Made by a program: the position numbers and the translations under genes | Assembly (NCBI RefSeq): GCF_033153115.1 | Contig: NW_026889790.1 | Coordinates: 4,650,001-4,714,000 of the forward strand | Direction: 5' to 3' | Source of the DNA: Saccostrea echinata | Lineage: Eukaryota | DNA: 64,000 nucleotides | Part shown: positions 11,421 through 32,599 of the stretch, piece by piece | Layout: each line of letters begins with the position of its first letter | Numbering within the stretch: position 1 is the first letter of the stretch | The notes under the pieces: generated by a model | What the model was told of the DNA's origin: nothing | The model's input: the letters and a program-made list of their open reading frames with translations, nothing else | Databases searched by the model: none

Positions 11421-11706
11421 GATGTTCACAGATACCCAGCAGATTGGTGCAGGAAAGAACACAACTAGGATATGCATTTACTTGTGAAACACGTAGTCAT
11501 ATTTTGGCTGTTTGTAACAGGTGAGTATAATTTAATCTTAGATTACTAAAGCAGGTTTAACAATGACTTCTAAAAAAACTCAAAAGAGCTTTAGAAAAAT
11601 TTAAAATATCAAAGTTTTTTATATGACTTTTCTGCGTTTATACAAATATTCCTCACGATAAATCAAAGAGCAGCCTTTTTGACATCATAAACAGCAGCTT
11701 CCTAAA

Positions 11707-11898
11707 TGAAATATGAAGTTAACGAACAGTAAAGCTCAAATATCCAATAAAAAATACAAATCGGGAGCAGAGCAAACACGGACCTCTAAAAACATCGGAG
11801 GTGAAGTGCCATGGAGGAGGAAGCATCCCCTGCCGACCGATCAGACCTGCCATGTGCTCCGTGTCATGATCGGACAAAAAGAAAAATCCGTGGACAAT
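11707..11898 (-). mobile_element. Penelope-like element 3'-end fragment in intron 1 of peptide copy 1
   Basis: Reverse complement of the 3' region seen at 29170-29370. Confidence 0.8.
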
Positions 11899-12373
11899 GG
11901 AACTCGTAAATTTTCATATCCTGCGATTGGTCATCTACAAAATTACTCTGTTAAAATAATTCTGATTCTACATACAACTATTCTGAAGTTGATATGTAAA
12001 AGATGCTTAAGATGAAATGAGAAAATAAAATTAAACGATTTTCAATTAGTTTACTTTTAAAGAAATGAATCGTTTTACTCACTTTAAAACAATTGCAATC
12101 ATTCGTCTCATTCTTATTATTTATTTCTTTATTTTGAAAAAAGTATCGTTTCTTGCAGCCTCCTGTTGTGAGAATGATGGCGAATGTGACCGAAAGGTTG
12201 ACTGTCCAGAAGGTCAGGTGGAAGCTTGCTCATACAGACAGTGTACATGCAAAGTGGGGACGAGTAAGTGTTTTGCAGATTAACAATCAAACACGATTTC
12301 CATTTACAGTGAAATGAACAACTATCTGTGGTGGACACGTCAAAATCAAACCAGTATAGAATGTTTGTTTTAA

Positions 12374-13356
12374 GGAGGTTGGATCTTGACATCGAATTTT
12401 TTCAAGTATAATTTTAGTTTCTGCACAGACAGCTTAATTAAAAATCAAAAACAACAATTGGGGTCAGTATGCTTTTTTTTGCGCTACAGTGCATTTAATA
12501 TGACCTTTTAGCACTGTAAATGCGTCTGACACTAAAATAACTTTTTCGAAGTTTTTCCTCCAATATTTTTTATCCAAAAAAACATGGTACCAAATACAGA
12601 CTAATTCTCTCTTAAACAAACACATTAAAAACTGTGACAAAGAAAAAGTTTCAAATTACTCTGCATAGTCAATTACTTGACCTTTCTGCACTCACACAGA
12701 GTCATTTTTCTGATATAAATAATTTTTATTCGTTATTTTTAAGTCTTTAGCTTTTACTGAATTTAAGCAGAATGGCCAAAGTTATCTTACATATTCAGAA
12801 AAGGAAATTAAAGGTGGAGGTCCGTCATGGAAATATTTAGGTATTACCATAAAAGTGTTAATTTTAAGGTAAAAGCTGGCAGATTTTTTTCTGGGCTTTC
12901 ACAATTTATTTGCTATAAATTGTCACAATATCATAAGAATCCATACTTAACAGTACTGAGAATACCTCGAAAAAAATTATCATTTTCTGCTAAAAAAAAA
13001 AAAGAGATGATAAAATTCATATTTAATTCAATATATTATTCGCGACCAGCATATTAAAACATTTCACTGCACAAAATAACTGTGTGCAGTTTGCATTGAA
13101 AAGAAGAATCCAAACTTAACAGTACTGTAAATAAATTGAATGAGAAAAAAATGATCATTTTCTGCCTAAAAAAAACCTGCCGCCACAAAATATAGTTTTC
13201 CCAACTTGATGATTTAGCATTGAATGTAATCGTGGTTTTTTTAATTGGAGATAGTATAATTGGCATTTTAGAATCCAAATTTATTGCAAGAACAAAAATT
13301 TGATGCAGAAATTTAGAAGAAAGAAAATCTATCCAAAAGCTCAGGATCGAACCTCC
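12374..13356. mobile_element. Non-autonomous DNA transposon with TTAA TSD (Kolobok-like) in intron 2 of peptide copy 1
   Basis: ttaa|GGAGGTTGGATCTTGA ... TCAGGATCGAACCTCC|ttaa; purine-purine termini and a TTAA duplication. Confidence 0.8.
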
Positions 13357-13615
13357 TTAAGTTTAGTGCTCACAAAAAATTAGAAGTAAAATCTAATCAA
13401 CCTAATCGGGGAAGATTAGGAATTTTCTTTTGAAAAACAAATAAATGTGAATCAATATATGATAAATTCACAGTGTGTTTTTAATTCAGAATGTCTTTTT
13501 GATTATGGCTGCGAAGATGACTGCAGCTCAGACCAAACTCCGGACTGTCGCGGATTTTAATGTTATTGCCATAATGTTTAAGAACAAATAAAGAAGACAA
13601 ACGTTTAACATTATA

Positions 13616-29371: not shown

Positions 29372-29609
29372 TTCCATCAAACTTCATACACATATTACTG
29401 AAATTAATCCAAATATAATTTTTTATGGCATTAATTTCACTTTTATTCGGGAGATGTTGTATGCTCAGTACATAGTTGACCAGTGAATTACCGTGTAACA
29501 ATATATTTTTTGAGGATAACGTTTACTCAGATGACAAAAAAACAGTGATAGGAATTGTACATTGTAGACCTGTGATTCTAGTCATTATTCATTTTCAGAT
29601 AAATAGGTC

Positions 29610-30563
29610 AATGACTTTGGCCTTCAACTCGACGTTTAGATATATTGACGCTTTATCAATTAACAATAGTTATTTCCATTCATATGTCGATGCGATACTA
29701 GTATATCCAAGCGAACTTGAAATAAAAGACACCACAGAATCTGTTTCATATTTGGATATTCTACTAGAAAAAGACGTTAATGGTAACCTAACAACAAAAC
29801 TTTATGATAAATGTCATGACTTCAACTTTTCCATCGTCAGCTTCCCTTATTAATGTACCAATATCCCTTATCACCTGCATATGGGTTTAGGTGAAATATA
29901 TGGAGATAACGAACAGTATTCAAGCTCAGAAGTTCATTAAACAATACAAAATAGGAGCAGAGCAAACACGGACCTCCAAAACATCAAAGGTGGGATCAGG
30001 TGCCATGGAGGAGTGAGCATCCCCTGCCGACCGGTCACACCCGCTGTGTGCTCCTTGTCATGATCGGGAAATAACGGAAAAATCCGTCGACAATTCAGAG
30101 TGTAAATAATGACCTAACAATTAGTATGAAAAAAAGTCAGTCAGCATTTGACTCAAAGATAAATTGCCTTTGCTGTCAAGGTTTAGGTCTCCCAGTTGAT
30201 TCGATACGCAAGAGCATGCTCTACGTACGATCAATTTTTAAAACGAGGCAAGCTATTAACCACCAAATTGATGAAACAAGGATATCAACAGTCTCGTTTG
30301 AAGTTACCATTGTTCTATGGTCGATACAATAACTTTATCAGCAAATGCAATCTATCATTAGGTCAAATGCTGTCTGAAGTTTTCCATACTAATTGTTAGG
30401 CCATTATTTATACACTGAAATTTCTACGGATTTTTCCGCTTACTCATCCATGGCACCTGATCCCGACTCTTAAGCTTTTGGAGATCCGTGTTTGCTCTGC
30501 TCCCGATCTGTATTGTTTAAATGAACTATGAGATTGAATATTGTTCGTTATCTCCATATTTCA
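29610..30563 (+). mobile_element. Penelope-like element interrupted by an inverted 3'-end copy (29891-30160, - strand)
   Basis: RT text (FRYIDALS...YPSELEIKDTTES...) stops at ~29890, an inverted 3' segment follows, then the RT resumes (SQLIRYARACS) at ~30185. Confidence 0.85.
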
Positions 30564-31208
30564 TAATGCGGGCAATGATCAAATTCTTGAAATATGCTGT
30601 CTGGAATGGTTTTTATTTATATTTTTGACATTCCTCCTTACATACCATTCAATTATTTGAGAAGATACCTGAGCTTTAATACACATATTATCTGCAAAAT
30701 GATATTTAAAAAACACGTAGATTCTTAACTTTCAGAATTATATTGGCCCAAAAAATTAAAAAAAAATTTAAAAAATTAAAATTTTATCCCAGTTTTCTCT
30801 GCACATCCATAAATTTACCTTTGTTCTTGCATATTTTCTTCAAATAGTAAAACTTTTGATATTGGTTTATGACATGGTTATTTTATCCATTTAGAACAAT
30901 GTTTGATTAAAGATATTGTACTTTATTAATATATACAGAGCAATCCGTTTCTGTCAACCAAAACTCCGAGTAAACATCCAGAATGCATGCATCGTATACA
31001 CTTTCAAGGATTTTAATGAAAAAAAGATCTGATTACTTACAGAATCCTGTTCAAAGCGAAGGTTAAAAACATGTTTTATGTAATAATACACTACGTCAGC
31101 ATATGTCCACGTTTACATGTTCAAAATATATCCTGGTAGCCTAGCTTATATAGACGTTTAATTATAGATACGCAGCAGATAGGTACAGAGATAAAAAGAC
31201 TATACAGC

Positions 31209-32599
31209 ATGAGCGTACTAGTTAAACACTTGGTATTCATTGGACTTTTTGTTAAGGTGAGTTAGGTTTTATTTCTGAGCACTAAAACAAATATTTCAAA
31301 GGTTTCCAAGCACATATAACATAAAATATAGAATGACGAACATTAATCAAGCTCAAAAGTCCATTGAAACAATACAAATTATAAAAGTTTTTAATTTAAA
31401 TGTTCTAGAGTACATATAGTTTTTTACTACTATTGACTTTCACGGGTTAGCGTCAAGAAAGGAAAAAAACATGATATTTCCGTTGGTTTTGGTTTATACT
31501 GCAAAATCTGAGGAGGGGTATTTTTGTTCTCAGTCTGGATAAAGGTACTTTTTCTGGTTCCAGATTATCGGTATCTTTAAAATATCTACATGCTGCAGGT
31601 ATGTCATTGTGCAAAAATGATTAAATTCAGTAAATTAAAAAAAGGATACAATGTCACTTTCTAGGTTCATTTTTAGTCAATTATATCATTTTTATCGCAT
31701 TAAAACAATTGTAAGTACCTTTGCATTATCGTTGTCAAATCTCTTTGAAACTTGTCTTTACTTTACAGCCTCCTGCTACAACTGTACGAATGATGGTCAA
31801 TGTAGCGGGAAGGTCAGCTGTCCAAGTGGTCAGATGGTAGCTTGCTCACGAAGACAATGTACCTGCAAAGTGGGGACATGTGAGTACTTTTCAGTTTACA
31901 AGTCAACCAAACACTGTGACTACTGAGTAAGTACTTATTAATTCCATGTACGGCAGCCAAGTGCAAACTACTTATTGCCACTGCCAATATTCTCTATAGC
32001 GGAGAGGCATAGTGAATGTAGGCTGTGCCTTACCAGTTCTCTAAAAAGATGCTACTGCCAACTAATATTGTTTACATCTGATATTGCCATTGAATTTTTT
32101 TTTAATTCTGAAACTCTGTGATTAGTAAGTCAAAGAAGGTAGAACTTGAAATAAAGACTCAGACCCTAGAGAGAGAGAGAAAGAAAGAAAGAAAGGGAGA
32201 AAGAGAGATCATTATAGGAACATTTTTTATACTAATAAATATATTAATCTTCTTCAGACTAGAAATACTTTATACCTGGGTTTTTTTTTTTACCTAAGTG
32301 TAATCATTGATAATTGATAATTTTAAACATATTTAAACCTAACAACAAGCAAAATTTGACTCATTAGGAAATGAAAATCAATCTGATCCAGGACAGAATT
32401 ATGTATATATGTTGACCTATAGGTCCAAGAATCGTTTGCAACAGTAATTTTTATTGCAAGGGTCAAAGTTATAAACAAATTACTAACTATGATTCATTAC
32501 GTATATTTTTTAGGGTGTTTGTTTGATCGTAACTGCAGAGATGACTGCTACCCAAATCAAATATATGATTGTCGGTTTTTACGATGTTATTGTCACTAA
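31209..32599 (+). CDS. Secreted two-module 12-Cys peptide, copy 4 (1-nt deletion at the exon 1 donor; frame restored only if the +4 GT is used)
   Basis: Exon 1 31209-31256 or -31260 (MSVLVKHLVFIGLFVK[V]); exon 2 31769-31879 (SCYNCTNDGQCSGKVSCPSGQMVACSRRQCTCKVGT); exon 3 32514-32599 (WCLFDRNCRDDCYPNQIYDCRFLRCYCH*). AATAAA at 32602. Confidence 0.75.

Follow-up and report, generated by a model that had tools for sequence, protein, structure and literature searches.

A tandem cluster of two-module cysteine-rich peptide genes in Saccostrea echinata, likely a divergent oyster branch of the MEROPS I84 lineage

The closest described counterparts of the genes discussed here belong to MEROPS family I84 of serine protease inhibitors, whose members include cvSI-1/2/3 of Crassostrea virginica and scSI-1 to 14 of Sinonovacula constricta (PMC9198434). 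As set out in that account, the I84 gene plan comprises three exons and two phase-1 introns, in which exon 2 carries Cys 1-6 and exon 3 carries Cys 7-12, and a two-exon, two-module design has already been described for I84. For the razor clam members reported there, the modules are joined by a linker of 6-23 residues, module 1 closes with Cys-Thr-Cys and the mature pI lies between 4.98 and 6.11. The same source ties I84 inhibitors to oyster resistance against Perkinsus and Vibrio and counts them among few such effectors (PMC9198434). Sequence search returned no solved I84 structure, and the literature found named no reactive site. Membership of I84 also entails a cleaved signal peptide and inhibition of subtilisin-family serine proteases.

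Here, sequence comparison suggests that a tandem gene cluster in S. echinata likely diverged from the I84 lineage as an oyster branch that has apparently not been described before. The first exons of four homologous copies begin at positions 11472, 18256, 24846 and 31209 of the window (the whole 64,000-nt stretch that was analyzed; all features lie on the forward strand), with 6784, 6590 and 6363 nt between consecutive starts. Alignment of the four copies places a TATA-type element upstream of each first exon, and exon 1 of every copy codes for a hydrophobic stretch (Kyte-Doolittle mean of 2.3-2.8 over its best 9 residues). Three copies also possess exons 2 and 3 with AG/GT sites and the expected Cys spacings (5,5,7,4,1 in module 1; 5,3,7,4,1 in module 2), and the module pattern occurs five times in the window compared to zero times in 100 doublet shuffles. 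A sequence-only reading of this DNA had proposed four paralogs about 6.5 kb apart, each with a TATA promoter and a hydrophobic first exon and three with two Cys-module exons, forming a birth-and-death cluster; this layout was recovered, with the corrections given below, and the analysis supports the view that Cys-rich peptide genes with two modules form a birth-and-death cluster in tandem here.

The copies differ in their state of preservation, and only copy 3 is intact in assembly GCF_033153115.1. In copy 1, a TATA-type element (11413..11420, from sequence and the four-copy alignment) precedes the coding part of exon 1 (11472..11520; 16 hydrophobic codons plus 1 nt, ending at a phase-1 donor) and an exon 2 that is 6 nt shorter than those of copies 3 and 4 (12159..12263; module 1 and an extra Cys). 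Module 2 on its exon 3 (13490..13581) is interrupted by one in-frame TAA within the match (13558-13560), upstream of the last Cys-x-Cys, leaving 74 aa with 11 Cys; copy 1 is probably a pseudogene or a truncated acidic form. Copy 2 comprises a TATA-type element (18197..18204) and an exon 1 recovered by profile search of the window (18256..18304), and the same search revealed neither exon 2 nor exon 3 in the readable sequence that follows, which is broken by 225 consecutive N. In copy 3, the TATA-type element has grown into a (TA)n run (24763..24780), and the 49-nt, phase-1 coding part of exon 1 (24846..24894), which is also the first exon of RefSeq model P0001, overlaps a 44-bp tandem repeat of four units (24877..25052) that duplicates the end of the exon and its splice donor, with the GT kept in three units. 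Exon 2 of copy 3 (26368..26478) encodes the extra Cys and module 1, and exon 3 (26743..26868) encodes module 2, followed by a stop codon (26826-26828), an AATAAA signal (26849-26854) and a loose poly(A) end after 26868. Copy 4 has a TATA-type element (31147..31152), an exon 2 with the extra Cys and module 1 (31769..31879) and an exon 3 whose coding part carries module 2 and a stop (32514..32599). Its exon 1 (31209..31256) measures 48 nt in the assembly, compared to 49 nt in the other three copies, and because it is one base short the phase of intron 1 does not fit exon 2. In Saccostrea precursors the extra Cys lies directly upstream of module 1, so that the intact models carry 13 Cys and not the 12 previously claimed.

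Transcript evidence comes from contigs of two runs of one study, guessed to be RNA. Contigs of both runs contain the copy 3 exon 2-exon 3 junction 26478>26743 (GT..AG), with exon 2 covered, its donor used and the intron uncovered, and the spliced contigs look polyadenylated; the proposed splice model is seen in use at this junction. The full-length exon 1 of copy 4 is apparently carried by contigs of both runs. A +4 donor that would restore the copy 4 frame was considered and set aside, as the contigs point rather to the full-length exon. Automated annotation had been expected to miss the cluster. RefSeq does contain a model, XP_061192761 (LOC133200964), but it is named "uncharacterized" and is chimeric, joining exon 1 of copy 3 to exons 2 and 3 of copy 4.

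For comparison with I84, we used 20 distinct sequences of each module from at least 20 typical genes found elsewhere in the S. echinata genome, which are termed I84-type from clam motifs and not by a database name. The cluster models follow the I84 plan of three exons, phase-1 introns (intron 2 being spliced in contigs), a hydrophobic exon 1 and one six-Cys module per later exon, with a predicted product of about 7 kDa, and the occurrence of dead copies in a tandem array resembles clam I84 clusters. In copy 3, 10 of the 11 Cys intervals fit the published I84 array, although spacings of this kind can also arise by convergence among small Cys-rich domains, a point against I84 ancestry. Splice positions agree as well: the nearest in-phase acceptor of typical genes lies 14 nt (12/20) or 8 nt (3/20) before Cys 1 and 2 nt before Cys 7 (13/20), and in the three cluster copies with these exons the distances are 14, 14 and 8 nt to Cys 1 and uniformly 2 nt to Cys 7. 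The cluster departs from I84 in having Asp at Cys1+3 and Gln at Cys3+4 in both modules, the 13th Cys in Saccostrea, a linker of five residues (four predicted for the typical I84-type gene L021) and no His in its modules, where I84-type comparison means are 2 and 3. Its mature pI is also predicted to be basic, with values across five assumed cleavage sites of about 8.0 (copy 3) and 8.3 (P0001). Cys-Thr-Cys ends module 1 in copies 1 and 4 and is lacking in copy 3, P0002, P0003 and P0005; other residues stand in its place in copy 3 and Magallana. A genome search with clam motif 2 alone gave no match, and a degenerate-pattern search yielded 7 matches compared to 19 in a reversed control; three of the seven (L019, L020 and L024) were dropped as non-family.

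The two modules relate to I84 very differently at the level of sequence. When the cysteines were held fixed and shuffles were scored on the I84-type profile, module 1 beat its shuffles on the module-1 profile in five of six sequences (P < 0.001 to 0.04; P = 0.15 in the sixth), values that are not independent tests because the sequences are related. Profile-profile comparison of module 1 with I84-type module 1 gave a probability of 90%, but module-1 scores of 7-24 bits do not rise above the bottom of the range that typical members reach in leave-one-out scoring (14-47 bits). Clam motif 2 likewise resembled module 1 of the cluster family (P = 0.002-0.049, 6/6) and not module 2 (P = 0.34-0.79, 3/3). 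Beyond its cysteines, module 2 showed no likeness to I84-type module 2 (P = 0.37-0.92 in 4/4; profile probability, 4.5%): the tail of clam motif 1 finds 0/6 identities there, compared to 3-4/6 in all 20 typical modules, and the His-Cys-Ile/Val-Asp/Asn motif kept in 20/20 typical module 2s is absent. Module 2 is instead closer to the cluster family's own module 1 (P = 0.006-0.16 in four sequences; probability, 60%). Because module 2 fails this motif likeness, we file the cluster as an I84-like lineage and not as a formal member. Descent from I84 nevertheless appears probable from the sequence comparisons, and the cvSI/I84 option, previously raised alongside a defensin-like one, is backed by gene plan, splice positions and module-1 sequence. 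A strong full-length match to a characterized family had been named as the result that would remove novelty. Neither homolog searches nor a profile search of 1.84 billion representatives returned a cvSI-named protein; since no strong full-length match to a named cvSI was found, some novelty remains at the level of a subfamily.

The rewriting of module 2 raises the possibility that peptides of the same I84 ancestry have lost protease inhibition and now act through module 2 as mildly cationic antimicrobial or receptor-binding peptides. Such a change would fit the loss of the typical His motif, the closeness of module 2 to the family's own module 1 and the aromatic and Arg residues of module 2 that are conserved from Saccostrea to Magallana, as well as a basic pI of about 8, near the 8.5-8.7 reported for oyster defensins (PMC3390580). 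However, the peptides carry a net charge of no more than about +2 to +3, copy 1 is acidic and module 1 retains I84-type residues, and we regard this alternative as unlikely, though worth keeping in mind.

A defensin-like identity had also been suggested for the cluster, on the basis of the C-x3-C...C-x-C spacing of module 2. If correct, the genes would form an independent double CS-alpha-beta family, defensin or scorpion-toxin-like, that resembles I84 by convergence. The spacing is that of a cysteine-stabilized helix (PMC5116183), and the peptides share with CS-alpha-beta defensins and short scorpion toxins (oyster Cg-Def included) probable secretion and a pI of about 8. However, C-x3-C is common to 15/20 typical I84-type module 2s and is thus not diagnostic, and the full 5,3,7,4,1 array occurs in 9/20; because typical module 2s share it, the "defensin signature" is ordinary I84 spacing, and the claim of a new defensin-like family is not upheld. 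Module 1 has x5 in Saccostrea and x7 in Magallana and P0005 at the helix interval. Gly-x-Cys is usual but not obligatory in the gamma-core of CS-alpha-beta peptides (PMC5116183); none of the aligned sequences has this Gly ahead of Cys 4 in module 1 or in module 2, and module 2 also lacks Lys-Cys-x-Asn at its fourth Cys. Oyster defensins place 8 Cys in a single 43-residue peptide, whereas the cluster has two modules and a different exon plan with splice positions matching those of I84-type genes. Together with the lack of a defensin match in Pfam or among PDB sequences, this makes an independent CS-alpha-beta origin quite improbable.

No Pfam family reached its cut-off for five exons, P0001, P0003 and P0008; Nodulin_late (PF07127) and EB (PF01683) matched module 1 at E values of 0.026 to 6.9, all below the curated cut-offs, and this weak resemblance to plant nodule Cys-rich peptides and EB modules most likely reflects a pattern common to small Cys-rich proteins in general. 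Neither P0001 nor a profile matched any PDB sequence at E ≤ 10. AlphaFold2 and Foldseek had been suggested as a test for two CS-alpha-beta folds. The models were of low confidence (pLDDT 64.5 alone and 54.6 with a six-row alignment), with a hairpin in each module and no helix in module 2, and the first model, the only one searched, gave uninformative matches (best Z, 2.9; best Foldseek E, 6.3). Atlas leads to plant defensin-like and nodule Cys-rich clusters, which would favor a CS-alpha-beta origin, stayed below the bar (feature score, 0.80; TM, 0.52 over 50 residues). A typical I84-type exon used as an Atlas control also found no I84 cluster, and for that reason the Atlas blank says nothing about I84.

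Among the homolog searches and the profile search of 1.84 billion representatives, relatives outside the cluster were confined to oysters. Two of the four matches in the representatives search were dropped as chance: one frog protein like complement factor H and one zinc-finger protein from a snail. Magallana angulata and M. gigas each have a relative with exactly 12 Cys, all kept (LOC117684848 for the Magallana peptide), while S. cucullata model P0002 has lost the last two Cys. Between the cluster copies, pairwise counts gave dN/dS of about 0.1-0.5 in 6/6 module comparisons. The family had been called rapidly evolving, which these values show to be overstated; nor do they carry any sign of an arms race, a further point against the antimicrobial or receptor-binding alternative. 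Taken together, low dN/dS and the 12-Cys Magallana relative indicate a maintained gene. A decaying cluster of little present function, with three copies dead and the fourth drifting, might be suspected from the stop in copy 1, the short exon 1 of copy 4, the single exon of copy 2 and the loss of cysteines in P0002, but the intact Magallana cysteines, dN/dS below 1 and copy-4-type contigs that appear in frame in 2/2 runs make it very improbable. A literature search found no paper naming the four loci or XP_034314498; PMC9198434 alone dealt with I84 in detail, and passages of PMC8398477 and PMC4892480 gave no description of this family. The Magallana gene may already be numbered as a cgSI in Pacific-oyster I84 catalogues.

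I84 descent is the best explanation of the cluster, and sequence features make it reasonably probable that its product is a secreted peptide that blocks microbial subtilisin-type or other serine proteases. Retention of protease inhibition by the cluster peptides is itself slightly favored. Small disulfide-rich inhibitors generally bind by placing a loop in the active site of the protease. The predicted secreted peptide of about 7 kDa, with two six-Cys modules probably held by three disulfides each, could similarly present a rigid exposed loop that fits tightly into a protease active site. The ancestral activity would more likely reside in module 1; module 2 retains I84 spacing and splice position with new surface residues, and the peptide's target range is therefore probably unlike that of typical acidic, His-rich members. 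New copies would arise by tandem duplication, and some would die.

A branch in which module 1 is kept and module 2 is rewritten offers a direct test of which module inhibits. Because the branch is conserved between Saccostrea and Magallana, it also reveals a gap in I84 catalogues that were compiled through similarity searches, and it exposes one RefSeq model as chimeric; the cluster does not establish a new antimicrobial peptide class. More speculatively, and in our view improbably, the cluster may represent an oyster-wide I84 offshoot with a switched function, in which module 2, perhaps derived from module 1 of the same family, was recast as a basic surface free of His that meets a new target, be it a receptor, a membrane of microbes or another class of protease. 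Splicing or recombination that mixes first exons and modules of tandem copies could, in addition, yield a three-module product and combinatorial variants from the four-copy locus. One candidate acceptor for such cross-copy splicing, or for a back-splice, is an AG upstream of copy 4 exon 1 (31166..31167), identified from one contig (X1 record 3) and a frame check; a phase-1 donor joined to this AG would read in frame into the ATG of copy 4.

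The cluster sits in 64 kb of AT-rich animal DNA, part of a 923-Mb assembly, and comprises four homologous first exons on the forward strand, starting at 11472, 18256, 24846, and 31209 (copies 1 to 4), with a TATA-type element upstream of every one in an alignment of the copies. Exons 2 and 3 were found in copies 1, 3, and 4, where each encodes one six-cysteine module, with cysteine spacings of 5,5,7,4,1 (module 1) and 5,3,7,4,1 (module 2) and a linker of five residues. The module pattern occurs five times in the window and never in 100 doublet shuffles. Close genome matches to exon 2, the RefSeq protein XP_061192761 (P0001, LOC133200964), the Magallana protein, and copy-2 exon-1 DNA were confined to the cluster (counts are lower bounds), and outside it the same searches gave one match only, at E 3.1.

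The cluster proposed by an earlier sequence-only reading is real, but its account of copy integrity needs correction: three copies with both modules had been claimed, and only copy 3 is intact in this assembly. Its precursor has 81 residues and 13 cysteines, the additional one two residues upstream of module 1. Copies 1 and 4 are broken, copy 1 by an in-frame stop codon ahead of the final Cys-x-Cys and copy 4 by an exon 1 of 48 nt, compared to 49 nt in the other three copies, so that exon 2 falls out of frame. For copy 2, neither exon 2 nor exon 3 was found in the readable sequence of the window; a downstream run of N is unreadable. Four repeats of a 44-bp unit, which includes the end of copy-3 exon 1 plus its donor, occupy 24877-25052 and create three tandem GT donors. 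A dispersed repeat family, 75 to 95% identical, lies between and within all copies (11703-11898, 14230-14808, 19427-19624, 24065-24315, 28716-30564, and 50805-51464) and could serve as a substrate for unequal crossover. An element with inverted repeats occupies 13615-13782, and half of it recurs at 19627-19718.

Contigs from two runs of one study, both only guessed to be RNA, were placed on 26340-26880. Cover within this interval is restricted to the two exons, and contigs from both runs join 26478 to 26743 over a GT..AG intron; one terminates in A's at 26868, 14 nt past AATAAA. The exon 1-exon 2 junction of copy 3 was not seen among these contigs. All three contigs whose 5' end is loose bear a copy-4-type exon 1 and have five ungapped letters ahead of the exon-2 start, compared to four in the assembly, which suggests that copy-4-type transcripts stay in frame and that the short exon 1 reflects either an allelic variant or an assembly error. 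One contig of the second run (X2 record 5) spans a copy-4-type exon 1, exon 2, and a copy-4-type exon 3. Two anomalies were each seen in a single contig of the first run. X1 record 1 is copy-4-like in its 5' half and copy-3-like in its 3' half; it could be a recombinant allele or else an assembly chimera joined over a 36-nt stretch identical in copies 3 and 4. In X1 record 3, the exon-2 donor (26478) connects to copy-4-upstream-like sequence at about 31168, directly after an AG in frame with the copy-4 ATG; this contig is either a read-through product, with three modules and an internal hydrophobic stretch, or a back-splice.

Cluster exons agree in every letter with P0001, a model of Saccostrea echinata, which identifies the source as a rock oyster. 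This RefSeq model fuses copy-3 exon 1 with copy-4 exons 2 and 3 (24846-32599), bypassing the modules of copy 3. The short copy-4 exon 1 is probably the cause of the join, which might alternatively reflect a real cross-copy splice.

Besides P0001, homolog searches returned Saccostrea cucullata LOC134231809, Magallana angulata LOC128167830, and M. gigas LOC117684848, every one annotated, like P0001, as uncharacterized, together with an unnamed ENA record containing both modules; no cvSI-named protein was among the matches. The Magallana relative (LOC128167830 with LOC117684848) has 83 aa, is 54% identical, and has exactly 12 cysteines. Isoform X1 of the M. gigas gene (P0008) carries a 19-residue insertion at the exon 1/exon 2 boundary, resembling an optional pro-peptide exon. 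The C terminus of the S. cucullata protein (P0002) diverges from the family and lacks the last Cys-x-Cys, the same part that is missing in copy 1; this is either a frameshift or a model error. The modules are under purifying selection, with dN/dS of ~0.1 to 0.5 in all six comparisons of modules between copies 1, 3, and 4 (simple codon counts, rough at 26 to 32 codons each).

A study on Sinonovacula constricta, a razor clam, describes I84 genes of three exons with two type-1 introns and six cysteines each on exons 2 and 3, arranged in tandem clusters with two nonfunctional copies and encoding products of pI 4.98 to 6.11; members selectively inhibit subtilisin-type serine proteases (PMC9198434). 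Copy 3 fits 10 of the 11 intervals of the cysteine array given there (PMC9198434). For an internal comparison set, the same genome was searched by the clam motif 2 pattern and then by two exons so found, yielding 20 distinct sequences each of modules 1 and 2, all from other contigs (three nonfamily pattern matches were dropped) and labeled I84-type from likeness to the tail of clam motif 1, not from a database name. This tail shares three to four of six non-cysteine residues with all 20 I84-type module 2s. The acceptor lies 14 nt upstream of the first cysteine in 12/20 and 2 nt upstream of cysteine 7 in 13/20, and spacing is 5,4,7,4,1 in 16/20 module 1s and 5,3,7,4,1 in 9/20 module 2s. Typical I84-type genes of this genome thus equal the cluster in splice and module geometry. 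They form a large family (at least 20 distinct sequences of each module; loci L021-L054) on contigs C4 (a tandem array at about 11.85-11.99 Mb), C43, C58, C19/C23, C20, C14, C12, C7, and C1 of the assembly (G000), where identical matches between C4 and C43 and between C19 and C23 may be retained haplotype duplicates.

Similarity beyond the cysteines was assessed by holding these fixed, shuffling the other residues 1000 times, and scoring on I84-type profiles. Cluster-family module 1 beat its shuffles on the I84-type module-1 profile in five of six sequences (profile-profile probability, 90%) and was not above chance on the module-2 profile, bar one marginal case (p 0.047). Cluster-family module 2 matched neither profile (p 0.35 to 0.92; probabilities, 4.5% and 17.7%) and was nearer to module 1 of its own family (60%; p 0.006, 0.031, 0.093, and 0.161), with which it has in common Asp at Cys1+3 and Gln at Cys3+4. 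Because module 2 still shows the spacing and acceptor position typical of exon 3, its divergence in place is a simpler account than its replacement, although it may have been converted from module 1. As a caution, the His motif also served to sort modules for the profiles, and module order within loci agrees with that sorting.

The same reading had seen a defensin signature in module 2. Two papers describe the CS-alpha-beta fold as a cysteine-stabilized helix, usually with Gly-x-Cys at the fourth of six cysteines (PMC5116183), and oyster defensins as single 43-residue, 8-cysteine peptides (PMC3390580). Helix-type spacing is indeed present in module 2, but equally so in 15 of the 20 typical I84-type module 2s; it is absent from module 1, and the Gly is absent from both modules in the aligned sequences. 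Two AlphaFold2 models, both poor (pLDDT 64.5 and 54.6), give each module a β-hairpin and module 2 no helix, and fold searches using the pLDDT 64.5 model returned nothing informative.

Spliced three-exon genes, a hydrophobic N terminus, and two six-cysteine modules are established. The peptide would be exported via the secretory path, form three disulfides in each module, and bind a serine protease tightly through a rigid loop. Rigid-loop inhibition is a general mechanism of small disulfide-rich inhibitors. The slow-tight binding mode is reported in the title of a reference cited by PMC9198434. Another paper links cvSI-type inhibitors to Perkinsus tolerance and states that their mode of action needs further study (PMC9892467). 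Judged from sequence, the cluster probably descends from the I84 family, and its peptide most likely works like an I84 inhibitor. Loss of the His motif from module 2, together with the computed basic character of the peptide (a pI of about 8 and a net charge of about +2 to +3), makes it probable that its target range differs from that of typical members, with altered function a serious alternative. Because module 2 lacks similarity to its I84-type counterpart beyond the cysteines and activity is a prediction, we file the cluster as an I84-like oyster subfamily of predicted inhibitors. A literature search, with most primary I84 papers outside its reach, found no description of this subfamily.

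Elsewhere in the window, open frames on the reverse strand encode a C2H2 zinc-finger protein (516 aa; 3667-5217), whose C-terminal end carries a 63-bp tandem repeat, a CABIT-domain protein (566 aa; 37306-39006; Pfam E 1e-25), and a Mab-21 nucleotidyltransferase with TPR (701 aa; 51733-53838), which we take by analogy to be of the cGAS-like receptor type. A reverse transcriptase frame on the forward strand (628 aa; 42161-44047) probably belongs to a LINE-type element.
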